NCBI GenBank assembly: GCA_963727455.1
Contig: CAVSGG010000017.1
Coordinates: forward strand, 160,001 to 224,000
Reading direction: 5' to 3'
Source of the DNA: Candidatus Krumholzibacteriota bacterium
GTDB taxonomy: Bacteria; Krumholzibacteriota; Krumholzibacteriia; JAJRXK01
DNA length: 64,000 nucleotides
Both the position numbers and the translations under genes were made by a program. Each line of letters starts with the position of its first letter. Position 1 is the first letter of the stretch. Shown here in pieces: positions 2,850 through 23,565 of the stretch. A model generated the notes under the pieces. That model ran no database searches. It was given only the letters and a program-made list of their open reading frames with translations, and was not told the DNA's origin.

Positions 2850-2852
2850 GAT

Positions 2853-5438: not shown

Positions 5439-5444
5439 CGCGAA

Positions 5445-6125: not shown

Positions 6126-6203
6126 CGTTCCTCCTAGGATCCCGACGAGATTGCGCGAAAAGACTAGCAGAGGGCAGGCCAGGTGGCGATCCGCTTCCGC
6201 CCC

Positions 6204-6252
6204 TTGACAGGAAAGCGGGCTCAGAACATACTTTGATCGGTATCCGTACAAA
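6204..6252 (+). promoter_or_regulatory. Sigma70-type promoter overlapped by ROK operator copy 1
   Basis: TTGACA (6204-6209), 17 bp spacer, CATACT (6227-6232), then TTTGATCGGTATCCGTACAAA (6232-6252). Confidence 0.7.
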
Positions 6253-6329
6253 GGGTGACCTTTGTTTCCAGCCGCAGACACTCATCTTTGGGAGTGGATC
6301 CTAGCTCGCATCTCTTCGGAGGTCCTCGC

Positions 6330-7718
6330 GTGAAGCAGCTCGTCGCGTTCTTGTTCGTCCTGTCGGTTCTCGCCCCTCAGTTGGGGTGCAGCGGTCGCGA
6401 CCCCATGGACTTGGAGGTCTCCCGGGCCAAGATCGATCCCGTGGTCTTCGACGATGACTACAGCCCCGACGTCTACTTCCAGGCTTTTGCCCAGACAAAC
6501 GTGGTCGCGGTCCAGCTGGATTCCGTCTACGCCTACAACGGTTACGCGCCCGACGGCGCCCGCTCCCTCAAGATCAACATCGCGCCCGGCGGATCGGCGC
6601 TGGGATCCTACTCCGGAGGAGTCTTGACCTCGGTGGCCAGCCGCGATTTCCTCGACTACAACGCGCTGAGCTTCTGGGCGCGCGCCGATCGAGACATCTC
6701 GCTGGATTTGGCGGGCTTTGGCAATGACAACACCGGCACTTCGCTCTACGAAGCGAGCCGGTCGGGTATCCCGCTCACGCGAGACTGGCAGCACATCATC
6801 GTCCCCATACCCAACCCTTCCAAGCTCATCGCCGAACGCGGGCTCTTCACCTTCGCAGAAGGATTGGAGGAACAGTATCCGGACGGGTACGACATCTGGG
6901 TCGACGAGATCCGTTTCGTCAAGGTCGATAGCCTCACCGTCTTTCGTCCCACCCTACGCTCGGTGAATCGTCAGTACTTTGTGGGCTCCACCGTGAATCT
7001 GGACGGGGCCTCCACCGTCTTCCAGCTGGGCAACACCTTCCTGCCGGTCAATCACTCGCCTAACTACTTCGATTTCGAATCCTCCGATCCTTCTGTGGCC
7101 AAAGTGATCCGGGGCAGGGTCCAGGTGAGCGGCGTGGGAAAGGCGACGATCACCGCGACCTTGCAGGGCTATCCCGCCATCGGCAGCGTGTCGGTTGCCG
7201 GCTACGAGCCTCCTCGTGCGGCACCTCCCACGCCCACGCTTCCGGCTTCCGACGTGATTTCCTTGTGGAGCGACACCTATCCCAACGTCACGGTCGATAC
7301 CTGGAGGGCCGATTGGGGGGGCGTCACCACGCAGGTCGAGGACTACACGGTGGGCAATCGCCACATGAAATTGTATTCCTCGCTGAATTGGGTGGGCATC
7401 GATTTTCTGAACAAGAAGATCGATGCCAGCAGCATGACCCATCTGCACGTGGACGTCTATGCACCGGCTGGTACCAACTTCAAGCTCAAGGTGGTCTCGT
7501 TTCCCTCCCAGCTCACGCATTCGGTGGAAACGCAGGAGAAGATCTTCAACGCCACCTCCACGCCGGCGTTTCATCCCGGCTCGTGGTCCTCGTTGGAGAT
7601 TCCGCTGACGGATTTCCAGTTGCCTACCGATTGGGACTGGAGTCGCATAGGCGAGCTGGTACTCGCTTCGACAGACGCACAACTCGTGCTTGTGGACAAT
7701 CTCTACTGGCACAAATAA
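6330..7718 (+). CDS. Lipoprotein with carbohydrate-binding-like domains and an Ig-like (Big_2) domain; probable glycan-binding protein
   Basis: GTG start after GGAGG; lipobox LGC; jelly-roll-like YNALSFWA...DIWVDEIRF; SSDPSVA.V..G.V...GVG.ATITA Ig domain; APPTPT..ASDVISLWSD.Y domain; lies in the glucan locus. Confidence 0.7.
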   Translation: MKQLVAFLFVLSVLAPQLGCSGRDPMDLEVSRAKIDPVVFDDDYSPDVYFQAFAQTNVVAVQLDSVYAYNGYAPDGARSLKINIAPGGSALGSYSGGVLTSVASRDFLDYNALSFWARADRDISLDLAGFGNDNTGTSLYEASRSGIPLTRDWQHIIVPIPNPSKLIAERGLFTFAEGLEEQYPDGYDIWVDEIRFVKVDSLTVFRPTLRSVNRQYFVGSTVNLDGASTVFQLGNTFLPVNHSPNYFDFESSDPSVAKVIRGRVQVSGVGKATITATLQGYPAIGSVSVAGYEPPRAAPPTPTLPASDVISLWSDTYPNVTVDTWRADWGGVTTQVEDYTVGNRHMKLYSSLNWVGIDFLNKKIDASSMTHLHVDVYAPAGTNFKLKVVSFPSQLTHSVETQEKIFNATSTPAFHPGSWSSLEIPLTDFQLPTDWDWSRIGELVLASTDAQLVLVDNLYWHK

Positions 7719-7761
7719 GATCAGCCTCGCTGAGCCAGCGCCTCTCACGAAGTTGGGCGGG

Positions 7762-9027
7762 ATGCAAAACCACAACCTGAATCGCAGGGGTCTGCGGCGT
7801 ACCGATGCTGACGGTCCGCGCCCCTTGGCCGATGCCGTCCTACGGCTCATCTGGCAGGAACGCCGGATCTCCCGCGCGGAGATCGCGCGGAACGCCAAGC
7901 TCTCCCGTTCTACCGTCTCGGAAATCGTCAATGAGATTCTTCCCATGGGACTCATCGCTGAAATCGGGGAGGGCCCATCCCGTGGCGGCCGACCGCCCAT
8001 CGTGCTGGAGTTCCGGGACGATGCCTGCGTCATTCTGGGGGTGGAGATGGGCGCGACCCACGTGGTGGTCACCCTCATCGATCTGCGTGGGAAGGTGCTG
8101 AGCTGGGAATCGCGTGAGCACCCCGTCCGCAGCGATCCCGCCGGAACCCGTAGACTCATCGCCGAGCTGTGCAAGGCCTGCCTCTTGGCCTCCGCGGTGG
8201 GAGATCGTCCCCTGGTGGGAATCGGAGTCGCGGTGCCATGTCCGGTTGACCCTTTCGGAAACCACCGTCTTTCCACCGTCGTGCTCCCCAAGTGGGAGGG
8301 CGAACTGGGACTCGAGGAACTCGCCAAACAGTACGAGGTCCCTCTGATGGTCGACAATGACGCCAACCTGGGGGCGCTGGCCGAGCACTGGTGGGGTGTG
8401 GGGCGTGGAGTGGACGACATCGCCTACATCAAGGTCGCGACCGGGATCGGTTCGGGTCACGTGGTTGGAGGCGAAATCTACCGGGGTGCCACGGGCGTGG
8501 CGGGGGAGATCGGTCACATTGCGATCGACCCGCAAGGAAAGCCCTGTATCTGTGGGCTGCGCGGGTGCTTGGTCACCCTGATCGGGGGGCAGGCTTTGCT
8601 GGAGCGGGCGGCGGAACTGCGCAGCGAGTACCCGCGGAGCACCCTGGCGAAAGGGGAACCCAGCGTGCGGGAGATCGAGGATGCAGCGCTGGCCGGCGAT
8701 CCTCTGGCCCTGCATGTCGCGCAGGAAGCGGCCAACTACTTGGGTCGAGCCGTGGCCAGTCTCTTGAATCTCATGAACCCCTCGCTCGTGATCGTGGGGG
8801 GAGATCTGGCCAGGCTGGGGGACCTGCTCATCCACCCCCTGCGCGATACGGTGGAGAAGAGAACCTTGGTCAGTTCGGTTGCAGCGGCTCAGATTCGCGC
8901 CAGTGAGCTGGGCTTTCGTTCCACCGCGATCGGCGCAGCGACCCTGGTTCTCAAGGCTGCCCTGGCCGACTCCCGGCTATTCCCGCGCGTCCCCGCTCCT
9001 AAATCGCCAGCTGCACATAGGTCCTGA
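7762..9027 (+). CDS. ROK family transcriptional repressor (NagC/XylR type)
   Basis: N-terminal HTH (ISRAEIA...LSRSTVSEIV), GGRPP, DNDAN.GALAE, G.AGEIGH and C.CG..GCL motifs. Confidence 0.93.
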   Translation: MQNHNLNRRGLRRTDADGPRPLADAVLRLIWQERRISRAEIARNAKLSRSTVSEIVNEILPMGLIAEIGEGPSRGGRPPIVLEFRDDACVILGVEMGATHVVVTLIDLRGKVLSWESREHPVRSDPAGTRRLIAELCKACLLASAVGDRPLVGIGVAVPCPVDPFGNHRLSTVVLPKWEGELGLEELAKQYEVPLMVDNDANLGALAEHWWGVGRGVDDIAYIKVATGIGSGHVVGGEIYRGATGVAGEIGHIAIDPQGKPCICGLRGCLVTLIGGQALLERAAELRSEYPRSTLAKGEPSVREIEDAALAGDPLALHVAQEAANYLGRAVASLLNLMNPSLVIVGGDLARLGDLLIHPLRDTVEKRTLVSSVAAAQIRASELGFRSTAIGAATLVLKAALADSRLFPRVPAPKSPAAHRS

Positions 9028-12000
9028 TCTCCCATTCGCGTCCCAGGGGCAGGCCCTCTGGATAGAGTGAGCCTTCGGCCGGTGCCGTCGCGCCCTCTGG
9101 TTGGTAGCGATTGGAGTAGCGATTCAGGGTACGGAAGGTGCCCTGAACTCCGATACGGGTCTGCGGAAGATCGAACCAGCGCGGCGTACCCAGAGTGAAC
9201 GAGACATCCGCCATCAGCTGCAACGGGAAGGTCAGGTTGTGGTCGTGGTGGTAGTCGTACGGTCCGTAGTCGTGGACCTTCACGAAGCCGGCCAGGGAGA
9301 TGGATGGCCAGACGATTCGACTGTCCACACCGACCCGGTGTACGAGACGTGGATTGTCTCCGTTGGGCTCGGCCGTCCCGTAGTAGAAGTGACTGATCAT
9401 GCGAACCCGCGAACTCAGGCGATGGATCGTCCTGCCGTGCAGCTCCCAAAGGTCGCGCGCGGGCGTGGCTCCGGGGAACGCTAGAATGGTGTTGTCGGCG
9501 GAAATGAACAGACCGGCGTCCGCCGTGGTGTGATGACGCTTGAGGCTGAAGCCCAGGCTCGCCGCGAACTTGGCGTCCTCGCGAAGGTCGCTGTCCCAAG
9601 CCCACATCCAGGTCGCGGGAGTGGGGTCGTAGGTGATCATCAACTCACCGCCGGTGGTCTCGCGGTTGGCGCGAACTGCGAAGGGGTCGTCCAGGACGTT
9701 GCGGGGACGTCCCGTGGTGCCGGCCAGATCGCTCGAGTTCGGCATCGGACCCACGATGGGTTTTTGCCAGAGAAAGTTTGGTCCGATCTGCCAGTTGCCC
9801 ATCGTGACCGCTACCCCCGAGAGCGCGTTGACCTGGTTGCCCATTCCGCTATCTCTGAGATCCCAACCGGTGAAGGTGGGAATAGCGGTCGGGCCTGCTT
9901 CGGCCACGAGGCCCATGTAGGCACCCTCACCGTACCAGTGCCAGCGTCCGTGCTCCCAGGTGAGCTTGCCCTTGAAACCGAAAGTGTCCTCGGGCTTGAT
10001 CTTGTCCTGGCGAACGTCTTCCGGTGCTACGGGGCCGCCAGCGTCGACGATTTTCTCGTCCACGAGCTGGAAGGTCTCCCCCACGCGCGGTTGTCCCGAC
10101 CAGAGGAGGCCGCCCTCGAAACCGAAGGGTCCCAGGCCGGTCTGCATTTGCAGCGAGGCTTTCCGCGTAGAACGAATCGGAATCGCGATCGAGCTGGTCG
10201 CCTGCGTACGCTGGGTGAAATCCTCCTGGTACATTCCGGTCCATTCGATTCCGGCCAGCTTGCGGTCGTACTTGAGGAAGACGGCGGGGTTGGCTCCCCA
10301 CCACAACTGCGGTCCCATAGCCAGCTTGAAGCCGTTGAAGAACTTCTTGCCCGCGATCTCGAAGCCGATCGGCGCTTCTCCATTGTAGATGTCCAGGTTC
10401 TCTCCGTAGAAGGCGTCGCGATACAGTCCGAAGAAATCGCCCTCGTACTGCCAGTGCAGATGGCCGGTGCGATAGAAGCTGTCGAGCTTGAACCAGCGAT
10501 CATCCCAGCTGAGATCGGCCTGATAGACCTTTACGCGCTCGAGCGACTGCACCTCGACCGGATTGCCGTTCTCGTCGAGGAAGGTCTGAGGGCGTCCGCG
10601 GTTTTCGTAGAAGATCTCGTCGATGGGATTCTGGGGAACGTTGCCCAGAACGTTGAGCGAGAGCCTGCCGATGACGCCTTCGTTGGGCTTGGCTTCGATC
10701 TCGGCGAAGAACGACTCCCCGTGGTCGAAGCCCAGGAAGGAGGGATAGGAATCCTGTGGATTCGTACTTTTTGGGGTCGAGATGTTCTTTCCGCCCGTGC
10801 TGTAGCTCTCGAATTCCATCCGCAAGCCCGACACGCGCACTTTCTTGAGCAGATCCGCCTCGTAACTCGCGGCATCTCCGCGGGCCTTCAAGACTTCCGC
10901 CATCGGTTCGATCGCGCGGAAGTGCTTGCGGATCGTCTGCAAGTCGGTGGTCGAGGCGTAGGGGTCGAGCACGAACGCGTCGCGGAGAGCGTAGTACGCC
11001 GCGCGCGGATAGACCTCGTAGAAGCCCTGCGCGTCGGGGAATCCCTTCGCGGTGATGCCCCACCACTCCTCGTTCATGTTGTTGTCGCCCTCACGGTAGT
11101 CGGTCGGGTAACCGCCGTTGGGCCAGGAGGCGTTGGTGTCATGGATGTCCAGCCGGCTGTCCTGACCGAACTTCCACCAACCGTCGCTCCACTGGAAGAT
11201 CAAGCCTCCGATCGCGTTGTTGGCCTGACCCTTTCCCGCCGACTGCTCGTAGATCTCTTCCCACTGTCCGAGCAGGTAGTAGGCCTGGGAGGCCTGGTCT
11301 TCCTTCATGGTGATCGCGTTGAAGGCATCCGCTCCGAATTCCGTGAAGAGGGCGGGGATACCGAGCTTGTCGTGAACTACCTGGAAGAAGTCGCGCGCGG
11401 AAACACCGCGATACACGTTCGAACCGAAGACATCGAGGCCCGGGCATTCTTGGGCGATGATATCGATGTACTGCACGTCACCGTTCGCGATCGCCACCGG
11501 ATGATCGGGGTCACGCTTCTTGATGTCCTGGATGATCTCTCCGAAGAGGGAGTAGAGAAATCGCGCGCGGGCCGCATTCTGTTCCCCTTTGGGCAGGGCC
11601 TCGATTTCGAACGAGGACCAGGATAGACCGTAATTGTTCTCGTTTCCCAAGAGCCACATGAGAACGCCCGGAGTTCCCTTGTAACGATCGACCTCCGCCG
11701 CCAACCGTTCCTTGAGGAACGCCCGCACCTTGGGGTCGCTGTAATCGGTTGTGGGATACCAGACACCGTCGATGGTCACTCCATAGCGGCCGACCGTATC
11801 GTTGAGGATGGTGTAGATCCCGTAGTTCCTCCACATGTACTCGATCCAACGCGGCTGCATGCCCGGCGCCTGTCGGATGGTGTTGATCCCCATGGACTTG
11901 AGCAGGGGCATTTCGCGGGCGAGGACCGCCACGATGAAATCGTCCGGCTGCCCCCAGAAGTCGTAGCTGTAGTTCTGCCCGATGGGTAGGTAGCCCCAGT

Positions 12001-12202
12001 TCATCCCGAAGACCATGAAGTCCTGGCCGTCCACCTGGAGCCGGCTGCCCTCCGCGTCGTTCACGACCGTGATGGAAGGCAACTCGGTGCCGCTCGCCCG
12101 CGCGCTGCCGGCGGCAAGCAGTAGGGGCAGAACCAGGATCATCCTCCAACTCACCCGGAGCAGACGGAGTCGTAAGGAGTTGCTACTTGGGATCGGTTTC
12201 AC
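8999..12202 (-). CDS. Secreted GH2-like (clan GH-A) TIM-barrel glycoside hydrolase with a ~550 aa beta-strand-rich C-terminal region
   Basis: Signal peptide; LLGNENNYG (acid/base) and LFTEFGAD (nucleophile) motifs. GTG at 12202 has GAGGGG upstream and overlaps the GH1 stop. Confidence 0.78.
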   Translation of the reverse strand: MKPIPSSNSLRLRLLRVSWRMILVLPLLLAAGSARASGTELPSITVVNDAEGSRLQVDGQDFMVFGMNWGYLPIGQNYSYDFWGQPDDFIVAVLAREMPLLKSMGINTIRQAPGMQPRWIEYMWRNYGIYTILNDTVGRYGVTIDGVWYPTTDYSDPKVRAFLKERLAAEVDRYKGTPGVLMWLLGNENNYGLSWSSFEIEALPKGEQNAARARFLYSLFGEIIQDIKKRDPDHPVAIANGDVQYIDIIAQECPGLDVFGSNVYRGVSARDFFQVVHDKLGIPALFTEFGADAFNAITMKEDQASQAYYLLGQWEEIYEQSAGKGQANNAIGGLIFQWSDGWWKFGQDSRLDIHDTNASWPNGGYPTDYREGDNNMNEEWWGITAKGFPDAQGFYEVYPRAAYYALRDAFVLDPYASTTDLQTIRKHFRAIEPMAEVLKARGDAASYEADLLKKVRVSGLRMEFESYSTGGKNISTPKSTNPQDSYPSFLGFDHGESFFAEIEAKPNEGVIGRLSLNVLGNVPQNPIDEIFYENRGRPQTFLDENGNPVEVQSLERVKVYQADLSWDDRWFKLDSFYRTGHLHWQYEGDFFGLYRDAFYGENLDIYNGEAPIGFEIAGKKFFNGFKLAMGPQLWWGANPAVFLKYDRKLAGIEWTGMYQEDFTQRTQATSSIAIPIRSTRKASLQMQTGLGPFGFEGGLLWSGQPRVGETFQLVDEKIVDAGGPVAPEDVRQDKIKPEDTFGFKGKLTWEHGRWHWYGEGAYMGLVAEAGPTAIPTFTGWDLRDSGMGNQVNALSGVAVTMGNWQIGPNFLWQKPIVGPMPNSSDLAGTTGRPRNVLDDPFAVRANRETTGGELMITYDPTPATWMWAWDSDLREDAKFAASLGFSLKRHHTTADAGLFISADNTILAFPGATPARDLWELHGRTIHRLSSRVRMISHFYYGTAEPNGDNPRLVHRVGVDSRIVWPSISLAGFVKVHDYGPYDYHHDHNLTFPLQLMADVSFTLGTPRWFDLPQTRIGVQGTFRTLNRYSNRYQPEGATAPAEGSLYPEGLPLGREWEIRTYVQLAI

Positions 12203-13613
12203 GGGATTCCCCTCGAGTCTGGGTGGAAGTGGAGGCCGCGGCGAGTTTCGCCGGGATCTCGACGACAGCATTCGCGGAAACGACCTCTTTGTAGTAGTGG
12301 GCGCTGTCTTTGGGCAGTCGCTGTTGGGAGTCGAAGTCGACGGAGAAGATGCCGAACTTCTTCTTGTAGCCAAAGCCCCACTCGAAATTGTCCAGCAGCG
12401 ACCACAAGAAATACCCTTTCAGTGGCACGCCGTCCTCGATGGCGCGGTGAGCTTCTGAGAGGTGCGCGCGCAGGTATTCGATTCGCTTGGTGTCGGCAAT
12501 GCGATCCAGGGAATCGACGGAGTAGTCGTAGGCGGCGCCGTTCTCGGTGATGTAGATCTCGCGCGGTCCGTAATCCCGGTGGACACGAAGCAAGCTCTCG
12601 TAGAGCCCTTGAGGGTAGACCTCCCAGCCCATGTCGGTCAGCTCATGAGGTGGGGCCACCTTCAGGTCCTTGGGACGCCCATCCGCTCCGCCCTTCATTA
12701 CGACTCGGCTGTAGTAGTTCAGTCCCAGAAAATCCAGGGGGGCGGCGATGGCCAGCATGTCGCCATCCTGCACAAAGGGCAGCTTGGGACCTTTCAGGTG
12801 ACCCGCGCGAATCCTGTCCTCCACCGCATCGGGGGGATAGGAGCCCAGGAACAGGGGGTCGAGGTACCAACGGTGGAAAAAGCCGTCGAACCAGCGCGAC
12901 GCGTCGCGGTCCCTCGCGCTGGAACTGGCCGGATGCGCCGGGCAATGGATGATGACGATGCCCAGTTTCACGCGCGGCGACTCGTCACGCATGACTTTAC
13001 AGGCCCAGCCGTGGGAGAGCAGTAGATGGTGGGCCACACGGAGCGCCTCGGAAGGATCGGTGTGTCCGGGCGCGTGATGCCCCTCCTCGTGTCCCAGAGT
13101 CGTCACGCACCACGGTTCGTTGTGGGTCACCCAGCGATCGACGCGATCCCCCAGCCGGCGGACCACTGCCTGGCTGTATTCGACGAAAGCCTTGGCCGTG
13201 TCGCGCTTGCTCCAGCCACCGCGTTCCTGGAGCGCCTGCGGCAGGTCCCAGTGATAGAGGGTGGGGAAGGGCTCGATGCCGGCTTGCAGCAACGCGTCCA
13301 CCAGGGCGTCGTAGAAGTCGAGTCCGGAGCCATTGAGCTGCCCGTAACCGCGCGGAAAAACTCGCGGCCAGGAAATGGAGAAACGGTACGCCCCGAGGCC
13401 AAGCCACTTCATCAGCGCCAGGTCTTCCCGCCAGCGGTGGTAATGGTCACAGGCGATATCGGGGGTGGAGGCGTCCTCGATGGCCCCCGGCCGGGCCGCA
13501 AAGCGATCCCAGATGGAATCGCCGCGGCCACCTTCGTGCCGGCCGCCCTCGATCTGCTGGGCGGAGGTAGCGACCCCCCATACGAAGTCCTTCGGGAACT
13601 CCAAATTGGCCAT
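12183..13613 (-). CDS. GH1 beta-glucosidase
   Basis: FPKDFVWGVATSAQQIEGG, TLYHWDLPQ, THNEP, YITENG and WSLLDNFEW motifs; no signal peptide. Start at MANLEF (13613). Confidence 0.95.
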   Translation of the reverse strand: MANLEFPKDFVWGVATSAQQIEGGRHEGGRGDSIWDRFAARPGAIEDASTPDIACDHYHRWREDLALMKWLGLGAYRFSISWPRVFPRGYGQLNGSGLDFYDALVDALLQAGIEPFPTLYHWDLPQALQERGGWSKRDTAKAFVEYSQAVVRRLGDRVDRWVTHNEPWCVTTLGHEEGHHAPGHTDPSEALRVAHHLLLSHGWACKVMRDESPRVKLGIVIIHCPAHPASSSARDRDASRWFDGFFHRWYLDPLFLGSYPPDAVEDRIRAGHLKGPKLPFVQDGDMLAIAAPLDFLGLNYYSRVVMKGGADGRPKDLKVAPPHELTDMGWEVYPQGLYESLLRVHRDYGPREIYITENGAAYDYSVDSLDRIADTKRIEYLRAHLSEAHRAIEDGVPLKGYFLWSLLDNFEWGFGYKKKFGIFSVDFDSQQRLPKDSAHYYKEVVSANAVVEIPAKLAAASTSTQTRGESRETDPK

Positions 13614-13697
13614 GCTGCTCCGACTCTTCCCGGGTGCCGCCTCAGGGACGGGAGTCCTTCCCCGGGGCTGGTCCGGCGAATTCCCTGAAAAAGAATC

Positions 13698-13744
13698 TTT
13701 GTTCGGACTCCGAACATAGTGTATGATAGCAAGGGCGGTGTCAA
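13698..13744 (-). promoter_or_regulatory. ROK operator copy 2 overlapping the GH1 promoter in a divergent intergenic region
   Basis: TTTGTTCGGACTCCGAACATA at 13698-13718. Minus strand has TTGACA (13744-13739), 17 bp, CACTAT (13721-13716). Confidence 0.75.
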
Positions 13745-13787: not shown

Positions 13788-14765
13788 ATGCGAAATCTGG
13801 TCATCGCCGTCCTGGCCGTCACGGCGCTTCTCTACCCACTCGCGACCCTCGCGCAGCCTTTGGCTTCGTATACACAGAATTTCGAGAGCCTGGTCCAGAG
13901 CGACGCCAACGCTCTGACCAACGACGGTTGGCTGGTTTACGGAAACGTCTATGACACCGACGGTACCACCTATCTGTACGGTTACGGTTCCTACCCGGCG
14001 CCCAACAACGGCGCTGCATTCTGTCAGATCGCCATTGGCGAAGGTGGATTGGAGCAGGGCGCACAGCAGCTCGTCGTGTTCAGCGACTACGAGAACACCG
14101 ATCACGCTTTGGGCTACTACATCGAGTCCAACGTCTTTCAGGAGCAGCCGATCGGCAGCGATGATGTCGGGAACACTTGGGTCTTCGAGTTCGACGCGAA
14201 GCTCGGCAATTTGGAACTCCTTTCTACCGCCTTGGCCTTCATCAAGACCATCGATCCGAACAACGGCTATGCGACCACCAACTTCATCACTTCGGACATG
14301 ACGAGCATTCCCTCGACATGGAATCACTACTCGCTGTCCATCACGATCGACGCGGGCCTGGTCGGCCAGTTGTGTCAGTTCGGTTTCTCGAACACCGCAA
14401 CCCTGTACCAGGGTTCGGGGGTCTTCTACGACAACATCAGCTTCCATCTGCAGGACGTGACGGGGACCACTCCAGTTCGTGCCTCAGTCGATGCGATCCT
14501 GCACCAAAACTACCCGAATCCCTTCAATCCCAGCACGAGCATCGAGTTCACCCTGAACAAGTCGCAGAGCGTCGAGCTTTCAGTCTTCGACATCGCGGGC
14601 CGTCGCGTGACCACTCTGCTGAAGGGCACCCTGGGCGAAGGTGATCATACGGTGCGTTGGAACGGACGGAGCGAGAATGGCGCTTCTGTGGCTTCAGGAC
14701 GCTACAGCTACGTCTTGCGGACGCAGAGCGGAGAGCTGTCGGGAAACATGATTCTCTTGAAGTAG
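13788..14765 (+). CDS. Secreted protein: ~200 aa beta-sandwich-like domain of unknown function plus FlgD-Ig/T9SS-type-A-like C-terminal domain
   Basis: Signal peptide; tail LHQNYPNPFNPST.I.F...V.LSVFDIAGRRV..L....WNG....G..VASG.Y; paralog of 20069-20800. Confidence 0.8.
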   Translation: MRNLVIAVLAVTALLYPLATLAQPLASYTQNFESLVQSDANALTNDGWLVYGNVYDTDGTTYLYGYGSYPAPNNGAAFCQIAIGEGGLEQGAQQLVVFSDYENTDHALGYYIESNVFQEQPIGSDDVGNTWVFEFDAKLGNLELLSTALAFIKTIDPNNGYATTNFITSDMTSIPSTWNHYSLSITIDAGLVGQLCQFGFSNTATLYQGSGVFYDNISFHLQDVTGTTPVRASVDAILHQNYPNPFNPSTSIEFTLNKSQSVELSVFDIAGRRVTTLLKGTLGEGDHTVRWNGRSENGASVASGRYSYVLRTQSGELSGNMILLK

Positions 14766-14790
14766 AAACCCCTTGCCGCGAGAGATGGCG

Positions 14791-17700
14791 ATGAAGACCA
14801 AGTCCAATCCCACGCCGGAAGTGCGCCCTGGGGAGATCCTCGGGGAATTCCCCAAAGGAGAATTCGTTCGTTTGGACGGGGAGATGTACTACCGGATCGC
14901 GGCGTACGACCTTCTCGAGCCCTTCCTGATGAGCGTGCCGAGCAACACGGACCTCTGGATGTTCGTTGCCTCGGGTGGTGGGTTAACAGCCGGTCGCGTC
15001 GACGCCGACGGAAGTCTGTTTCCCTACCGAACGGTGGACAAACTGCACGATGCCCATTATCACACGGGTCCTCTCAGCTCGATACAGCTCGAGGGAGCCG
15101 AAGGAAGGGTCCTACGCTGGGATCCGTTCGCGAGCGATGCGCTGCACAGTGCCGCGATCGAGAGGAACCTCTACAAAAATCCCTTCGGCAATCGGCTGGT
15201 GTTCGAAGAGATCCATCACGAACTCGGTCTTGCGTTTCGCTATCGCTGGGCGGCTTGTGATGAATTCGGTTGGGTGCGGACGGTCACTCTCGAGAACCGC
15301 TCCGAACGATTGGCGCGGATCACAGTGCTGGATGGACTCAGAAACATCCTTCCCTACGGTGCTCCACTCTCACTCTATCAGCAGGCGAGCAACTTGATTG
15401 ACGCCTACAAGCGATCCGAGGTAGATCGAGAGACCGGACTCGGCATTTTCTCGCTCACCTCCTGTATTACCGACCGGGCAGAAGCTCTGGAGATGCTCAA
15501 GGCGAACACCGTCTGGTGTTGCGGTCTGCAGAGATTCAAGGTCCATCTTTCGCTGGATGTGGCGAAGGACTTCCATGCACGGAAGGTATTGGGCGAAGAC
15601 AAAGTGCTGAGCGGTGCCCGCGGCAACTATCTGGTAAGCGCGCCCTTGGAAGTGAAACCGGGGGAGGTCGCTCGCTGGCACATCGTGGGCGATACCGGTT
15701 CGGATCAGGTTCGAATCGCCGCTCTCCGGCGGAAACTCCTCGAGGAAGATGATCTCAGCGCAGTCGTGGAAGAGAAGCTTCGCGAGGCGGAGAGAGATTT
15801 GCGACGTAACGTGGGAAGCGCGGACGGCCTGCAGCTAACCGCGCACCCGGAAAACTGGGTGCATCATTTCACGAATGTTCTGTTCAACAACATGCGCGGA
15901 GGAGTGTTTTTCAACAACTACTCCGTTCCTATCGGGGACTTCCGGGATTTTCTGCAGGTACGAAATCGTGAGGTTGCGAAGCGGCGCGCGTCGACCCTCG
16001 AGTCGTTGTCGAATTTCTCCGAGATCGAGGAAATTCAAGCCGTGGCACGGGCCTCGCACGATCGCAACTTCGAACGCCTGAGCTACGAGTATCTGCCTCT
16101 CTACTTCGGACGCCGTCACGGTGATCCCAGCCGTCCCTGGAATAGCTTCTCCATTCGAACCAAGAACGAAGCGGGCGTGAAGATTCTGAATTACCAGGGC
16201 AACTGGCGCGACATCTTCCAGAATTGGGAAGCACTAGGCGCGTCCTTTCCGGGATTCCTTCCCAGCATGGTAGCCAAGTTCGTCAATGCCTCCACGGTGG
16301 ACGGGTTCAACCCCTACCGCATCACGCGCGACGGAGTGGACTGGGAAATCGCGGAAGCAGATGACCCCTGGAGCAACATCGGCTATTGGGGCGATCATCA
16401 GATCATCTACCTCTTGAAGCTTCTGGAGAACCTGGATCGCCATCAACCGGAAGCGCTGGGCAAACTGCTAGGTCAGGAGATCTTCAGTTACACCGAAGTT
16501 CCCTACCGAATCCGTCCCTACGAGCAAATTCTGAAGAATCCGCGTCAGACCATCGACTTCGATCATGCCCTCGCGGCGCGCATCGAGCAGAGAGTCAAGT
16601 GCCTGGGAACCGACGGGAAACTTCTGTCAGCGGCCGATGGCTCCACCTACCATGCGAATCTCTTCGAGAAGCTGTTGGTGCCGGCCCTCTCCAAGCTGTC
16701 GAATTTCATCCTCGATGCCGGCATCTGGATGAACACTCAGCGCCCTGAATGGAACGATGCGAACAACGTGCTGGGGGGCGGGGGCGTCTCGGTGGTCACC
16801 CTTTGTCACCTCAGGCGCTACCTGGCGTTCATCGGGGAGCGATTCGAGCGATCGACGCAGGCCGAATTCCCCGTCGCGGGCGAGATCATCGATTGGTTGG
16901 ACGGCATCGAAGTCACTCTTCGCGAGGAGCACGAGCGACTCTCGGGCGAAGAATTGGGCGCGGTCGATCGCAAGCGCATGATGGACGCTCTGGGGAGCAT
17001 CTTTTCGCGATACCGCGATCAGGTCTACGCGAACGGATTCTCGAAAAAGCGCAGCCTAGAGGCGTCCAGGGCCGCCGCACTCTGTCGGCTCGCTCTCGCG
17101 CTTATCGATCGGGCGATCGACGCCAACCGCCGCGAGGACGGGCTCTACCACACCTACAATCTGCTGGAGATCGACGAGGTCCAGGGAACGGCCGAAGTGA
17201 TCCACTTACAGGTCATGCTGGAAGGCCAGGTCGCCGCGCTCAGTTCGGGGCACCTGTCTCCCGAAGAGGCGCTGGAGATTCTGCAGCGGCTCTTCAGCAG
17301 TTCGCTCTACCAGGCACAGCAACGCAGTTTCCTGCTCTATCCCGATCGGGAACTCCCGGGCTTCATGGCCCGGAACGTCATTCCGAGCGGGCGGGTGCAA
17401 TCCATCCCACTCCTCGTCGATCTCCTCGCGCGGGGCAATCGTTCGATCGTGGCGCGTGACGCGGAAGGAATGTTCCGTTTCCACGGGGAGTTCAAGTGCG
17501 CGCACGACTTGGCCCTTGCGCTGGAAGTTCTCGAGGAGCAGGAGGAATGGCAGAGCGGGGTCCGCCGGGACCGCGAGCAGGTTCTCGATCTCTTCGAAGA
17601 AGTCTTTGCCCACAAATCTTATACCGGGCGCTCCGGAGTCATGTTCGGCTACGAGGGCCTGGGCTGCATCTACTGGCACATGGTGGCCAAGCTGTTGCTG

Positions 17701-18291
17701 GCCGTGCAGGAGAACTTCCTGCGGGCGGAGGAGATCGGTGCATCGGCGTCGGTGCGCGAGGACCTGGCCAGCATGTATTTCAGGGTGCGTGCTGGGATCG
17801 GCTACGAGAAGTCCGTCGAGGAATACGGCGCTTTTCCCACTGATCCCTACTCTCATACCCCGGCCAGCGGAGGAGCGAAACAGCCGGGCATGACCGGTCA
17901 GGTCAAAGAGGAGATTCTCACGAGGCGCGGCGAGCTGGGCGTGAAGGTCCAGGAGGGCTGCCTGCGTTTTCATCCCCAACTTCTGAGCCAGCAAGAGCTT
18001 CTCGAGCAGCCCGAGGTTTTCCATTATTTCGACCTGGCCGGAGAAGAGCAGACCCTCGCCTTGTCCGAGGGCAGTCTGGTATTCACCTTGTGTCAGGTAC
18101 CGGTGGTCTTCCGGCGCGCGGCGGCGAAGCCGTGCATGCTGCTCGAGTTTGTCGATGGCAACTCGAGACTGGTGCCCGGCGATACCCTTCCGCCCGAGTT
18201 GAGCAGCGAGCTCTTCTCGCGCAGCGGCCGCATCCAGAAGATCACGGTGGACCTTGCAATAGGCAGCTTCCGCTCGAACAACCGGAGATGA
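14791..18291 (+). CDS. GH149 beta-1,3-glucan phosphorylase (probable)
   Basis: ~1166 aa, no signal peptide; RRHGDPSRPWN.F, YQGNWRDIFQNWEAL, YEGLGCIYWHMV.KL, GAFPTDPYSHTP and QPGMTGQVKE blocks recalled as conserved in GH149; GH16/GH17 neighbours. Confidence 0.8.
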   Translation: MKTKSNPTPEVRPGEILGEFPKGEFVRLDGEMYYRIAAYDLLEPFLMSVPSNTDLWMFVASGGGLTAGRVDADGSLFPYRTVDKLHDAHYHTGPLSSIQLEGAEGRVLRWDPFASDALHSAAIERNLYKNPFGNRLVFEEIHHELGLAFRYRWAACDEFGWVRTVTLENRSERLARITVLDGLRNILPYGAPLSLYQQASNLIDAYKRSEVDRETGLGIFSLTSCITDRAEALEMLKANTVWCCGLQRFKVHLSLDVAKDFHARKVLGEDKVLSGARGNYLVSAPLEVKPGEVARWHIVGDTGSDQVRIAALRRKLLEEDDLSAVVEEKLREAERDLRRNVGSADGLQLTAHPENWVHHFTNVLFNNMRGGVFFNNYSVPIGDFRDFLQVRNREVAKRRASTLESLSNFSEIEEIQAVARASHDRNFERLSYEYLPLYFGRRHGDPSRPWNSFSIRTKNEAGVKILNYQGNWRDIFQNWEALGASFPGFLPSMVAKFVNASTVDGFNPYRITRDGVDWEIAEADDPWSNIGYWGDHQIIYLLKLLENLDRHQPEALGKLLGQEIFSYTEVPYRIRPYEQILKNPRQTIDFDHALAARIEQRVKCLGTDGKLLSAADGSTYHANLFEKLLVPALSKLSNFILDAGIWMNTQRPEWNDANNVLGGGGVSVVTLCHLRRYLAFIGERFERSTQAEFPVAGEIIDWLDGIEVTLREEHERLSGEELGAVDRKRMMDALGSIFSRYRDQVYANGFSKKRSLEASRAAALCRLALALIDRAIDANRREDGLYHTYNLLEIDEVQGTAEVIHLQVMLEGQVAALSSGHLSPEEALEILQRLFSSSLYQAQQRSFLLYPDRELPGFMARNVIPSGRVQSIPLLVDLLARGNRSIVARDAEGMFRFHGEFKCAHDLALALEVLEEQEEWQSGVRRDREQVLDLFEEVFAHKSYTGRSGVMFGYEGLGCIYWHMVAKLLLAVQENFLRAEEIGASASVREDLASMYFRVRAGIGYEKSVEEYGAFPTDPYSHTPASGGAKQPGMTGQVKEEILTRRGELGVKVQEGCLRFHPQLLSQQELLEQPEVFHYFDLAGEEQTLALSEGSLVFTLCQVPVVFRRAAAKPCMLLEFVDGNSRLVPGDTLPPELSSELFSRSGRIQKITVDLAIGSFRSNNRR

Positions 18292-18293
18292 CG

Positions 18294-20068: not shown

Positions 20069-20800
20069 TTAGCGATACAGCGCCTTGACCTTGCCCCAGC
20101 TGGAAGCCTGGGTGGGAATTGCACCGTTCATGTAGAAGCTCAGGTTATCGTAGAATATCCCCGAAGGTTCGTAGTTCGCGGCGCGGTTCGAGAAGCCGAA
20201 CTGCAGAACCTGGCCGGCCAGAGCCGGGTCGATCGCGATCGAAAGAGCGTAATCGCCCCAGGTGGTGGGAATACTGGTCATGTCGACCGTGATGTAATTC
20301 GTGGTCGCATAGCCGGCGCCCGGATCCAGGGTCTTGATGAAGGCCAGGGCAGTGGAAGCGCCGGCCAGATCTCCATGCTTGGCCTGGAAAGTGAAGTACC
20401 AGGTTTGGCCGACGTCGCCAGCACCGATTGTCTGCTCATGGAACACGTTGGATTCGATGATGTTGCCATTGGCGTGATCGCCATTGTTGTAGTCGCTGAA
20501 CACGGACAACTGCTGGACGCCCTGGGCAGCGCCACCCTGACCGTCCGCGATCGTGCAGAACGCGTAGGGGGGGCCACTGTTGGGGGCGGGATAGACACCG
20601 TAGCCGTAGAGGTAGCTGACACCGTCGGGGGCGAAGACGTTACCGAAGACCAGCCAGCCGTCGGCAGCAAGCGCGCCGGTATCGGTCAGACCGAGGCCCT
20701 CGAAATCTTGGCTGTAGCCCACCAGCTGAGCGCTCGCCAGCACCGGCACCAGGCAGATCAGCAACACGGCCGCGAAAATAGCAGTAGCTCGATTGATCAT
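20069..20800 (-). CDS. Secreted protein, paralog of 13788-14765, ending in a short SWGKVKALYR tail
   Basis: Signal peptide; shares GWLV.GNV, YLYGYG.YPAPN, VFSDY, IESNVF.EQ, STALAFIKT.DP and QFGFSN blocks with the paralog; ends IPTQASSWGKVKALYR. Confidence 0.82.
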   Translation of the reverse strand: MINRATAIFAAVLLICLVPVLASAQLVGYSQDFEGLGLTDTGALAADGWLVFGNVFAPDGVSYLYGYGVYPAPNSGPPYAFCTIADGQGGAAQGVQQLSVFSDYNNGDHANGNIIESNVFHEQTIGAGDVGQTWYFTFQAKHGDLAGASTALAFIKTLDPGAGYATTNYITVDMTSIPTTWGDYALSIAIDPALAGQVLQFGFSNRAANYEPSGIFYDNLSFYMNGAIPTQASSWGKVKALYR

Positions 20801-20988: not shown

Positions 20989-21035
20989 TTGACCGCTTCG
21001 CCGGCGAGGGGTACTTTGTTCGTATGTCGAACAAA
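20989..21035 (+). promoter_or_regulatory. MFS-GH17 promoter with ROK operator copy 4 (perfect arms)
   Basis: TTGACC (20989-20994), 17 bp, TACTTT (21012-21017); TTTGTTCGTATGTCGAACAAA at 21015-21035. Confidence 0.78.
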
Positions 21036-21092
21036 GAAGCCGCTTCCCAAGCCTAGCCTCGGCAAGCCCAAGTTCCCCAACGAGATGGCGCC

Positions 21093-22565
21093 ATGAACCC
21101 AGCCGTGCACGCCAAGACAGCTCCGGAGGACCGGGTTCCTTTCCTGCAGCGACTGGCCTACGGCTCAGGCGCCTTCGTCAACAACCTGCTGGCCGCGGCG
21201 AGCGGCGGCATGATGATCGTGCTGAATCTGGGCTTGGGGATGAATCCCGGCCTGGTCGGCCTGCTAGGGGCTCTGCCTCGTCTCACCGACGCCTTTACCG
21301 ATCCCCTCATGGGATACATTTCGGACAACACCCACACCCGCTGGGGACGGCGGCGGCCCTATATTTTCAGCGGCGCCATCGCGGCGGGGGTGATCTTCGC
21401 TCTCCTATGGCAGTTGCCGCGGGGACAGAGCGAGACCTTCTACTTCGTCTTTTTCCTCGTCGGTTCGATTCTCTTCTACGCCGGCTACACGGTCTTCGCT
21501 ACCCCCTGGGTCGCTCTGGGCTACGAACTCACGCCGGACTACAATGAGCGCACGCGCCTCATGGGAACCCAGAATTTCATCGGTCAGCTCGCGTACGTCG
21601 TCTCGCCCTGGTTTCTGTGGATCATGAACTCCGGCAGGTTCTTCCCGGATCAGGTCTCTGGAGCGGCCGGACTGGCCATCATCGTCGCCGTGGTTGCCAT
21701 CGGCTTGGGAATTCTGCCGGCGATCTTTCTGCGGGAACGCATGAAGCAGGTGGCGGCGGAGGAAATGGACCTCAAGTCGGAGCCCGGGGCCAGCGGTCTC
21801 CTGCACAACATCAAGGAATTTTTGAGAGGTTCGAAGGTCACGCTTTCCAACGGGCCCTTCCTCAAGTTGTGTATGGCTACCTTTCTCGTCTTCAACGGTT
21901 TCATGCTCATCGCCTCCTTTCAGTATTACGTGATCATCTACTACGTCTGCGGTGGTGACCAGACCGCGGGCGCCAAGTACGCCGGCCTGGCCGGTACGGT
22001 GGGCGCGGTGTGCACTTTCGCCGTCGTGGCATTCGTCACCTGGCTCGGCACGCGGATCGGAAAGCGGCACACCTTCTTCCTTGCGATCGGACTCTCCATC
22101 ATCGGTTATGGTCTGAAGTGGGTTTGCTACAACCCCCAGATGCCTCTTCTGGTGGTTCTCCCCGCACCCCTGATGGCCTTCGGCTTGGGCGGGCTGTTCA
22201 CGCTGGTTCCCTCCATGATCGCCGACGTGGTCGACACCGATGAACTCACGACCCACGAACGACGCGAAGGGATGTTTGGCTCCATTTTCTGGTGGATGGT
22301 GAAACTGGGCATGGCCGCGGCGCTGGCGGGCGGCGGCTATCTCCTGAACGCCACCGGTTTCAACGTCGATCTGGGGGGAAATCAAGCCGCGCGGTCCATC
22401 ATCCTCTTGCGGCTGTGCGACGCGGGAATTCCCATGCTGACTTCGGCCCTGGCAATCTGGGCTGTGTCACGCTTCCCCATCTCCGAGGAGAAGGCCCTTC
22501 AAGTGCGCCAGGAGTTGGAACGTCGCCGAGGACGCGCGCCGGTGGTCGAGGCTCTGAAGGGATAG
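21093..22565 (+). CDS. MFS sugar transporter, GPH/MelB-like family
   Basis: DAFTDPLMG.ISD.T.TRWGRRRPY, LTPDYNERT and SMIADVVD..EL....RREG motifs; about 12 TM segments. Confidence 0.92.
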   Translation: MNPAVHAKTAPEDRVPFLQRLAYGSGAFVNNLLAAASGGMMIVLNLGLGMNPGLVGLLGALPRLTDAFTDPLMGYISDNTHTRWGRRRPYIFSGAIAAGVIFALLWQLPRGQSETFYFVFFLVGSILFYAGYTVFATPWVALGYELTPDYNERTRLMGTQNFIGQLAYVVSPWFLWIMNSGRFFPDQVSGAAGLAIIVAVVAIGLGILPAIFLRERMKQVAAEEMDLKSEPGASGLLHNIKEFLRGSKVTLSNGPFLKLCMATFLVFNGFMLIASFQYYVIIYYVCGGDQTAGAKYAGLAGTVGAVCTFAVVAFVTWLGTRIGKRHTFFLAIGLSIIGYGLKWVCYNPQMPLLVVLPAPLMAFGLGGLFTLVPSMIADVVDTDELTTHERREGMFGSIFWWMVKLGMAAALAGGGYLLNATGFNVDLGGNQAARSIILLRLCDAGIPMLTSALAIWAVSRFPISEEKALQVRQELERRRGRAPVVEALKG

Positions 22566-22569
22566 GATC

Positions 22570-23565
22570 ATGCAGTTGCGCGGCGCAGTGCTTATCCTGC
22601 TCTTAGTCCTCTTCGCTGCTGGTCCCGTGGAGGCTACCCGCGGCGGAGCCGTGACCGGTTCACTTTCCCCAGGAGGAGAACCGTTTTCCATGCGCCCACT
22701 TCAGCTGAATCTACAGGGCATCTGGATCGGCAACGCGATCTGCTATAGCCCCTATCGCGACGGGCAGAACCCCGACGGCGCTTCCCCCAGCTCCGCGCAG
22801 CTTCGCGAGGATTTGCAGCTGATGCTGCCTCACTGGAATCTGCTGCGCACCTACGGGTCCTCGGGTTACGTCGAAGAGCTTCTCTCAATCATCCGAGAGG
22901 AAGAATTGCCCATGCGAGTCATGCTGGGGGTTTGGCTCACGCCGCGGGATTCAACGGCGAACGTGCGAGAGATCGACGAGTCGATTCGCCTGGCCAATGC
23001 GTTTCCTACGATTGTCATCGCGGTATGCGTGGGGAACGAAACGCGCGTCGCTTGGTCGGACCACCGTCTACCGGTGGAAGTTCTCGTTGATGCGATTCGT
23101 CGCGTGCGGGGAAGGGTCGAGGTCCCGGTGACCACCGCCGACGATTTCAAGTACTGGAATCAGGAGGAGAGTCGGAAAGTCGCGGGCGAGATCGATTTCC
23201 TCACCATGCACGCGCACCCTCTGTGGAATGGCATTCAACTTGAGGATGCTCTTCCGTGGCTGGAGCGCCAAGTGGACGCGGTGCAGGCGATACATCCCGA
23301 GAGCGTGATCGTGCTCGGGGAGACGGGGTGGGCCACCGACCACTCCGAAGAGGGGGAGCAGGGTGAACTGATCAAGGGCCAAACGGGGGCACGCCAACAG
23401 AAGCAGTTCTATGAAGCCACTCGTGACTGGGCCAAGCGCAAGACGATCCCGACCTTCATCTTCGAGGCCTTCGACGAGAACTGGAAGGGGGGCGATGATC
23501 CCCAGGAGGTAGAGAAGCATTGGGGTCTCTTCCGCGCGGATCGCACGCCAAAGAGCGAATTCTAG
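22570..23565 (+). CDS. Exported GH17 beta-1,3-glucanase/transglucosylase
   Basis: YSPYRDGQ.P, LRTYG, VCVGNE, LGETGW, FEAFDE.WK and EKHWGLF..DRTPK motifs; signal peptide. Confidence 0.9.
   Translation: MQLRGAVLILLLVLFAAGPVEATRGGAVTGSLSPGGEPFSMRPLQLNLQGIWIGNAICYSPYRDGQNPDGASPSSAQLREDLQLMLPHWNLLRTYGSSGYVEELLSIIREEELPMRVMLGVWLTPRDSTANVREIDESIRLANAFPTIVIAVCVGNETRVAWSDHRLPVEVLVDAIRRVRGRVEVPVTTADDFKYWNQEESRKVAGEIDFLTMHAHPLWNGIQLEDALPWLERQVDAVQAIHPESVIVLGETGWATDHSEEGEQGELIKGQTGARQQKQFYEATRDWAKRKTIPTFIFEAFDENWKGGDDPQEVEKHWGLFRADRTPKSEF

Follow-up and report, generated by a model that had tools for sequence, protein, structure and literature searches.

We analyzed a stretch of 64,000 nucleotides (the window) from contig CAVSGG010000017.1 of a Candidatus Krumholzibacteriota genome (assembly GCA_963727455.1; contig positions 160,001 to 224,000, forward strand), which carries a beta-glucan locus with genes for glycoside hydrolases (GH) of families 1 and 17, a GH149 phosphorylase, an inner-membrane sugar importer, a ROK-family regulator, a lipoprotein and several secreted proteins. 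Within it lies a gene whose product joins a glycoside hydrolase to an outer-membrane beta-barrel, a fusion that had been proposed in a first-pass annotation of the DNA. The open reading frame (ORF) starts with GTG at 12202 on the minus strand and ends with the stop codon at 8999-9001, giving a product of 1067 amino acids; a Shine-Dalgarno-like box, GAGGGG, is located 6 nt 5' of the GTG. Because the fusion gene starts within the final codons of the upstream GH1 gene, the two genes are probably translated as one operon. The fusion gene is single-copy in the host assembly (3.46 Mb in 18 contigs, 88.85% complete, 6.68% contamination), and the nearest relatives of its product come from metagenome-assembled genomes of Krumholzibacteria. 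The N terminus is made up of a basic stretch, MILVLPLLLAAG, and then SARA/SG, with no lipobox cysteine; residues 1 to 36 read as a putative signal peptide, and the protein is probably secreted.

The N-terminal half is a glycoside hydrolase domain whose assignment to a clan GH-A TIM barrel, already made in the first-pass annotation, was borne out both by sequence and by predicted fold. The sole Pfam match on the whole protein was Glyco_hydro_2_C, the GH2 TIM barrel (residues 93-295, E = 1.1e-5). A single-sequence phmmer search of the PDB matched GH158(Pro) (9oro, E = 1.7e-5), and a profile built from 41 homologues matched BuGH158 (6pal, E = 4.9e-9, over about 190 residues only) and 9oro (E = 1.5e-8), with GH2 galactosidases ranking behind GH158 (E = 3.6e-5). 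In a full-length AlphaFold2 model (mean predicted local distance difference test score [pLDDT] 85.9, predicted template modeling score [pTM] 0.66), strands and helices alternate across residues 70-410, and the (beta/alpha)8 catalytic fold is present. Foldseek placed GH158 (9p26, 6pal) and GH157 (LaGH157 with laminaribiose) first, at E values of about 1e-13, and the best matches of the enzyme half were all endo-beta-1,3-glucanases according to their entry titles. The putative acid/base E188 (GNENNYG, codon 11639-11641) and nucleophile E288 (FTEFGAD, codon 11339-11341) are aligned to the motifs GNE and TEFG/TEWG in 9oro and 6pal; at least 90% of the 41 homologues conserve N187, E188 and E288.

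Excerpts of PMC13195107 name the catalytic residues of GH158(Pro) and describe, for both solved GH158 structures, an Ig-like domain that is C-terminal to the TIM barrel and packed on it. The model of the fusion protein has no such domain; past residue ~415 come helices spanning residues 421-451, and then the barrel. The known GH158 enzymes (BuGH158, 6PAL; GH158(Pro), 9ORO/9P26) and GH157 (LaGH157, 9G5G) thus share the (beta/alpha)8 fold and the NE and TE motifs with the fusion protein, which resembles them also in belonging to a beta-1,3-glucan locus. It differs from them in being distant (12-15% identity in fold alignments) and, in the case of GH158, in carrying a helical linker and a 613-residue barrel instead of the Ig-like domain. 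The enzyme domain is called GH158-like here, short of proven GH158 membership. Its predicted activity is the hydrolysis of beta-1,3-glucan, and the gene context (GH149 and GH17 in the window, GH16 in relatives) speaks for this.

The C-terminal half was modeled as a transmembrane beta-barrel. Residues 440-1067, modeled with AlphaFold2 from a 55-sequence alignment, gave no soluble beta-sandwiches, which the first-pass annotation had named as a refuting outcome; the model has a pLDDT of 90.6, a pTM of 0.86 and no segment below 50, and DSSP reads 24 long, hairpin-joined strands in it, the first beginning at residue 455. Where the first-pass annotation had noted some 550 residues of strand-rich sequence, the strands were found and the length was not: the region runs over 613 residues (455-1067). 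The four peptides that it had quoted as strands start at residues 741, 879, 1016 and 1057 and fall, in the model, on strands 741-763, 879-890, 1015-1026 and 1054-1066. A terminal beta-signal had also been suspected, and in line with this the final strand shows alternating hydrophobic residues, the protein terminates in YVQLAI, and of 41 aligned homologues, 37 close with one of the residues I, L, F, M, Y and W and 4 with Q or R.

Structural searches with the barrel model retrieved membrane barrels. Foldseek returned at least 500 PDB matches, 432 of them at an E value of 0.001 or below; all those listed were membrane barrels and included PfeA, BtuB, MOMP, OmpF, MtrB and AlgE. VIA-align, run against 48161 chains, found 57 matches with Z of 8 or more, and all 50 of those listed were membrane barrels. 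The top match was AlgE (Z = 15.1, root mean square deviation 4.3, 263 residues aligned), followed by Occ porins, MOMP, a chitoporin (Z = 12.6) and a maltoporin (Z = 12.2). The 24-stranded ushers FimD (Z = 12.3) and PapC (Z = 11.4) and the 26-stranded MtrB (Z = 10.2, 405 aligned) align across model residues 15-628; TonB-dependent transporters align over 330-377 residues at Z = 10.5-10.8. The host genome contains 6 matches to the Omp85/BamA family, 5 of them over the cut-off, and the host is a diderm.

No Pfam or NCBIfam family matched residues 455-1067 at E values up to 10, the same being true of 14 relatives in Pfam hmmscan searches, and no PDB chain matched the barrel part by sequence, whether with the single sequence or with a profile. 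Judged by sequence, the barrel is a family without prior description. DUF6029 was considered as a family for it, on the strength of a neighbor in the ESM Atlas (cosine 0.94; other clusters unnamed), and was rejected, as hmmscan gave no DUF6029 match at E values up to 10 with the domain or with the 14 relatives. The most conserved stretch of the barrel, residues 856-878 (window ~9569-9637; TYDPTPATW...WD.D.REDA), falls in a 20-residue turn that would lie on the periplasmic side by strand count in the model, and it is kept even in the barrel-only relatives described below. Two loops of the barrel, at residues 578-611 and 815-848, are also conserved.

The locus around the fusion gene appears to form one regulon (Table 1). 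A motif search of the window with the palindrome found between the divergent GH1/fusion and GH149 operons gave three matches, where 0 were expected, each at the promoter region of an operon of the locus. The palindrome is a candidate operator of the ROK regulator, and the fusion gene would on this basis belong to a laminarin regulon under that regulator.

Table 1. Positions of the fusion gene, its domains and other features of the locus in the window
Feature	Position	Strand	Basis or remark
Glucanase-barrel fusion gene	8999..12202	-	ORF and translation; GTG start, stop included
Putative signal peptide, residues 1-36, type I	12095..12202	-	Read from sequence; no lipobox Cys; pLDDT <60
Clan GH-A (beta/alpha)8 catalytic domain, residues ~44-415	10958..12073	-	Pfam, PDB profile, Foldseek
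Helical linker, residues 421-451, directly ahead of strand 1	10850..10942	-	DSSP helices 421-429 and 433-451
Outer-membrane beta-barrel domain, residues 455-1067 (613 aa), ~24 strands	9002..10840	-	AlphaFold2 model; no Pfam family
GH1 beta-glucosidase, directly upstream of the fusion gene, same operon	12183..13613	-	Pfam GH1, E 2.4e-158; NCBIfam BGL
Conserved partner lipoprotein, CBM-like (carbohydrate-binding module-like) C terminus	6255..7718	+	Weak Big_2; lipobox LGC, Cys45, codon 6387; probable start 6330
ROK-family regulator, N-terminal winged helix-turn-helix	7690..9027	+	Pfam ROK, E 3.9e-55; HTH_24; probable Met 7762
Secreted protein, type IX secretion system (T9SS)-type C-terminal tail	13788..14765	+	Paralogue of the 20069-20800 product
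GH149 beta-1,3-glucan phosphorylase	14773..18291	+	NCBIfam NF058639 equivalog, 1493 bits vs cut-off 1150
T9SS-sorted secreted protein, 539 aa	18288..19907	+	FlgD_ig, Por_Secre_tail
Small secreted protein	20069..20800	-	Signal-peptide-like N terminus; kept in 11/80 loci
MFS_2 sugar importer, inner membrane	21093..22565	+	Pfam MFS_2, E 5.6e-65
GH17 glucanase	22570..23565	+	Pfam GH17; signal-peptide-like N terminus
23-nt palindrome, between the divergent GH1/fusion and GH149 operons	13697..13719	.	Inverted repeat, 91% complementary
Palindrome copy 2, upstream of the partner lipoprotein/ROK operon	6231..6253	.	Motif search of window
Palindrome copy 3, upstream of MFS_2/GH17	21014..21036	.	Motif search of window

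Next, we looked at how TonB-dependent transporters are distributed with respect to the fusion gene, the first-pass annotation having claimed that the locus lacks them. The claim held: a Pfam scan of the 15 ORFs between 619 and 23565 found no Plug, TonB_dep_Rec or SusD, and the nearest of the 6 Plug matches in the host genome lies at window 59291-59602, ~47 kb from the fusion gene. The fusion protein itself matched neither Plug nor TonB_dep_Rec in Pfam or NCBIfam, nor was it matched by a Plug hidden Markov model (HMM) built from 25 segments, which recovers the window's own TonB-dependent receptor at an E value of 2.3e-24. Across 160 related loci, this HMM found a Plug ORF in only 2 (L092 and L044), and a Pfam scan of 72 ORFs from 12 Bacteroidota loci found no Plug, TonB_dep_Rec or SusD. 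Five genomes that carry the fusion have 12-116 Plug matches each, located elsewhere in the genome. These results indicate that the homologous loci, like that of the window, are without SusC-type transporters.

Relatives of the fusion protein are widespread. A word-indexed protein search returned 4787 proteins at an E value of 0.001 or below among 8000 candidates, with source names such as "glycosidase," "beta-galactosidase" and "hypothetical protein." An exhaustive search with the barrel part returned 441 cluster representatives at E values of 0.001 or below (126 at 1e-30 or below); when 29 representatives were scanned with Pfam, GH2_C was found in 9 and no family on the barrel in any. Among species genomes, taken one per species, at least 597 encode a relative (from 601 pattern matches). 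The carriers belong to the Krumholzibacteriota, Gemmatimonadota, Eisenbacteria, Ignavibacteria, Calditrichota, Myxococcota and Bacteroidota, and Flavobacterium terrisoli PT-3, Sediminicola luteus HQA918 and Flavilitoribacter nigricans DSM 23189 are cultured carriers.

We then counted neighbors by tblastn of the window proteins against 80 loci that were kept. For high-GC loci, where long antisense frames win ORF calling, we relied on tblastn and six-frame HMM scans. MFS_2 was found in 33 of the 80 loci, GH149 and GH17 in 26 each, ROK in 23 and GH1 in 15. Of the 80 loci, 53 have one or more of the beta-glucan genes of the window, and of the 43 loci with flanks of 5 kb or more on either side, 39 have one or more.

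For the Bacteroidota, the Pfam scan covered 72 of 121 ORFs (those of at least 240 aa and without a BLAST label) in 12 of 16 loci, and the other four (L093, L041, L065 and L067) were covered by the Plug HMM scan only. All 12 loci have the order fusion gene, lipoprotein, GH16, usually followed by GH149, GH17, GH30 and a transporter of the major facilitator superfamily (MFS). In 7 of the 12, a Y_Y_Y/Reg_prop regulator adjoins the fusion gene upstream, on the same strand in 6 and on the opposite strand in L069. By their gene order, these loci have the layout of a laminarin polysaccharide utilization locus (PUL) with the fusion gene in the place of SusC. A BguR type of regulator is described in the consulted part of a 2026 preprint (10.64898/2026.01.10.698779), and the Y_Y_Y proteins upstream may be regulators of this type. 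Flavilitoribacter nigricans has, 6 kb upstream of its fusion gene, a gene (L056:1775-3994, plus strand) for a 739-residue protein in which CBM9 is followed by DUF5916; this may be a further instance of a carbohydrate-binding module linked to a large, beta-rich domain.

The barrel is also found without the enzyme. In barrel-only forms of ~570-615 aa, a signal peptide is directly followed by the barrel. Eight such relatives were aligned and used to scan metagenomes, which yielded 80 loci, of which 49 encode fused proteins of a second, more distant lineage, 15 are barrel-only and 16 are cut by the contig end. For the barrel-only neighborhoods we Pfam-scanned 51 of 85 neighboring ORFs and found three arrangements: an Opp-type ATP-binding cassette (ABC) importer (SBP_bac_5, two permeases, two ATPases) with LacI, barrel and GH16; glucokinase, barrel, ABC importer, GH1, GH16 and LacI; and, at two loci, the barrel together with a large GH16 and a type I secretion set. 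The barrel gene thus accompanies beta-glucan loci with or without the enzyme, which argues that the barrel has a role of its own, most simply that of a channel. These barrel-only loci resemble the "type I" GH149 clusters in excerpts of PMC5827456, where these clusters are noted to lack an outer-membrane transporter. At the two loci of the third arrangement (L099:3-9407 and L101:2-10021), the barrel stands between the GH16 gene (954-1159 aa, truncated at the end of the contig) and genes for OEP, ABC and HlyD, which suggests that this GH16 is secreted by the adjoining type I system.

The fusion is often accompanied by a lipoprotein. Of the 80 related loci, 55 have a homologue of the partner lipoprotein of the window, as do 38 of the 43 loci with long flanks; its gene is directly downstream of the fusion gene on the same strand at 27 loci, and the lipobox is kept across phyla. 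No SusD-like Pfam match was found on the partner. In the Bacteroidota, acidic residues follow the Cys of both the partner and the GH16 protein. This recalls the lipoprotein export signal and suggests that both proteins are surface-exposed. A gene for a different lipoprotein, with two CBM-like repeats, follows 41 of the 49 fusion genes of the second lineage. A complex prediction for the barrel (residues 455-1067) with the partner (residues 46-315) scored 0.56, the best of three controls scoring 0.00; contact agreement between runs was at least 83% and partner pLDDT at least 79. Among solved complexes, 116 of 157 attain the mark set for such scores, as do 2 of 215 mismatched pairs; with a score of 0.60 or below, it is attained by only 18 of the 157, together with both of the passing mismatches.

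On which side of the outer membrane the enzyme lies was assessed from the barrel model. Turns of 2-3 residues follow the even-numbered strands 2, 4, 8, 10, 12, 14 and 20, and the long loops follow odd-numbered strands. Short turns of outer-membrane barrels usually face the periplasm, so that both barrel ends would be periplasmic, and with them the enzyme, unless the linker helix runs through the pore as it does in autotransporters. On balance, we slightly favor a periplasmic enzyme.

We consider it probable that the fusion protein serves as a TonB-independent gate in the outer membrane, an enzyme and a channel in one, for beta-1,3-glucan (laminarin-type) oligosaccharides. Enzymes and glycan binders at the cell surface (T9SS-sorted proteins in the window, GH16 lipoproteins in the Bacteroidota) would, with the partner lipoprotein, capture and nick the polymer, and glucan chains would cross the barrel without TonB energy. 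The tethered glucanase would then cut the chains, most likely at the periplasmic exit, which would also block back-diffusion. A periplasmic GH17 enzyme would trim the products, the MFS transporter would import them, and the cytoplasmic GH149 phosphorylase and GH1 enzyme would complete their breakdown, the whole gene set being controlled by the ROK repressor on the three copies of the palindrome. One may go further and see in the fusion a third type of outer-membrane glycan importer, beside passive porins and TonB-powered SusCD, in which whole laminarin chains captured by the partner lipoprotein thread the 24-stranded barrel and hydrolysis by the tethered glucanase at the periplasmic exit ratchets their diffusion, amounting to "selfish" uptake without TonB or proton-motive force; this extension we hold to be rather doubtful.

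Several observations weigh against the gate function. TM-scores of the barrel to solved barrels are 0.38 or lower in Foldseek, so that the count of 24 strands rests on the DSSP reading, and AlgE, the highest-scoring structural match, is an export porin. At 27 of the 80 loci, many of them short contigs, no beta-glucan gene of the window was found. The prediction of the barrel-partner complex is a weak pass and lends weak support to such a pairing. Hinge residues 441-460 have a pLDDT of 66-71, which together with the pTM of the full-length model means that the arrangement of the two domains is not fixed. An N-terminal CBM4_9, found in 1 of the 29 relatives scanned, suits a surface enzyme better than a periplasmic one, and the helix right before strand 1 also resembles an autotransporter linker.

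These last points lead to the alternative, also raised in the first-pass annotation, that the protein is a self-anchoring display system in the manner of autotransporters: the barrel would export the glucanase and anchor it on the surface, with the helix passing through the lumen, and oligosaccharides would use other porins. Type Va autotransporters consist of an N-terminal passenger, a linker helix and then a 12-stranded barrel, and the order of N-terminal enzyme, helix 433-451 and strand 1 at residue 455 matches this. The relative with CBM4_9 would fit as well, as would the presence of a single Cys in all 1067 residues. We nevertheless judge display unlikely and favor the enzyme-channel function over it because the barrel has ~24 strands rather than 12 and because passenger-free, barrel-only relatives occur in beta-glucan loci. 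Moreover, no autotransporter family in Pfam matched residues 455-1067, the low pLDDT of the hinge is unlike that of a helix packed in a pore, and the enzymes that these loci place on the surface carry T9SS tails or lipoprotein signals instead. Display would also need an unlinked porin, as the locus encodes no other outer-membrane sugar transporter.

The tight-turn parity of the model, which places the N terminus of the barrel and by default the enzyme in the periplasm, would equally suit a closed barrel that merely anchors a periplasmic glucanase under the outer membrane and transports nothing. This seems improbable to us: it leaves unexplained why the loci have no other outer-membrane transporter, why barrel-only forms occur beside ABC importers and why the adjoining lipoprotein with CBM-like domains is kept up, and a barrel of 613 residues would be a costly anchor.

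Very improbable, in our view, is that the fusion exports or remodels the cell's own beta-glucan, as a secretion porin of the AlgE/BcsC/PgaA type with a tethered trimming hydrolase. Exporters of this type have a periplasmic domain and a C-terminal barrel, AlgE heads the VIA-align matches, and the barrels of PgaA, BcsC and PelB score at Z = 9.3-9.7, but general and sugar porins score as high as exporters in the same search. The conserved neighbors are all catabolic or concerned with import (GH149, GH1, GH16, GH17, GH30, an MFS or ABC importer with its binding protein, glucokinase and sugar-responsive regulators), and the loci that were scanned showed no glucan synthase or GT2. That the C-terminal half is made up of soluble domains (beta-sandwich or CBM), with the barrel being a modeling artifact, has next to no chance of being right, given the high-confidence single-domain model with long hairpin-connected strands, the membrane barrels that make up all listed fold matches, the lack of any CBM or Ig match in Pfam on this half, the alternation in the C-terminal strand and the hydrophobic or aromatic last residue in 37 of 41 homologues.

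We compared the fusion as a putative enzyme-channel with known outer-membrane and transport systems. It resembles the SusC/SusD pairs of laminarin PULs in coming after a regulator and ahead of a lipoprotein and a surface GH16, in pairing a large outer-membrane barrel with a conserved lipoprotein, and in a partial structural match (Z ~10.6). It differs in having no Plug, probably in having ~24 strands (SusC has 22), and in carrying an N-terminal enzyme in place of the plug; the partner is not SusD-like by Pfam, and energy coupling is presumably absent. The substrate-specific sugar porins of catabolic loci (maltoporin LamB, chitoporin ChiP and CymA) are likewise outer-membrane channels encoded together with enzymes and an inner-membrane importer for one glycan, and the barrel-only relatives beside ABC importers look like porins of this sort. 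Their barrels have ~320-440 residues, against 613 in the fusion, with which they share no sequence relation, and the fusion differs further in its covalently attached hydrolase and in its lipoprotein. The polysaccharide export porins AlgE, BcsC, PgaA and PelB, too, have a soluble part at the N terminus and a barrel, of 16-18 strands in their case, at the C terminus, but there the context is TPR domains and biosynthetic operons, and here it is an enzyme and a catabolic regulon.

In the literature, the uptake of laminarin by bacteria is explained by SusCD or by TonB-dependent transporters. In open-access full texts and bioRxiv, supplements aside, we found no description of a fusion of a glycoside hydrolase to an outer-membrane barrel, or of a barrel family, for laminarin loci. 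The architecture, the barrel family, the partner lipoproteins and the place of all three in laminarin loci without SusCD appear to be new. Excerpts of PMC6246565 describe FbGH17b of Formosa B as an MFS-GH17 "transporter-CAZyme fusion" (CAZyme, carbohydrate-active enzyme). FbGH17b is similar in that a beta-glucan hydrolase is joined to a transporter of the same pathway (in the window, MFS_2 and GH17 are adjacent and separate); it differs in being an alpha-helical MFS protein of the inner membrane, the fusion studied here being a beta-barrel of the outer membrane. A Muricauda cluster in the consulted sections of PMC13188888 contains a "GH2 beta-glycosidase" with LuxR, GH16, GH149, GH17, GH30_1 and MFS, and those sections do not mention SusC. 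From its place in the cluster, and not from its sequence, we suspect that this "GH2 beta-glycosidase" belongs to the fusion family.

Laminarin is among the most abundant marine glycans, according to excerpts of PMC6246565 and PMC13188888. If the fusion protein is the gate that we propose, it would fill the missing outer-membrane step in at least 597 species of several phyla and define a barrel family and an enzyme-channel architecture that are both new. Laminarin loci without susCD would have to be reannotated and recounted in metagenomes, and the resulting model of TonB-independent glycan import would be testable in the cultured carriers.

Some minor features of the window deserve mention. 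The open frame of the GH1 gene reaches 14447, which would give a 278-codon N-terminal extension without a family match upstream of the probable Met at 13613; the extension is probably untranslated, because a plus-strand gene occupies 13788-14765. The product of that gene and the small secreted protein encoded at 20069-20800 are 58% identical over 236 aa and match no Pfam family; only the former has a T9SS tail, and the two may be surface glycan binders. The product of 18288-19907 has a CBM-like N-terminal region and, at residue 314, the sequence EIDIE, which resembles the GH16 catalytic motif; no GH16 match was found in Pfam, and the protein could be the surface endoglucanase of the locus. In sequence searches of the PDB, it gave matches to its tail domain only, and the small secreted protein gave none.

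The MFS_2 and GH17 genes lie next to each other on the same strand with a 4-base gap. An ORF at 6954-8420 on the minus strand (488 aa), seemingly conserved in 23 loci, was rejected as a gene and taken to be an antisense shadow of the ROK gene, because its matches always overlap ROK matches on the opposite strand. Adjoining the regulon is a minus-strand cluster at 2160-6281, which encodes a VTC-domain protein, an 861-aa CotH-kinase-like protein and a DUF4956 membrane protein.

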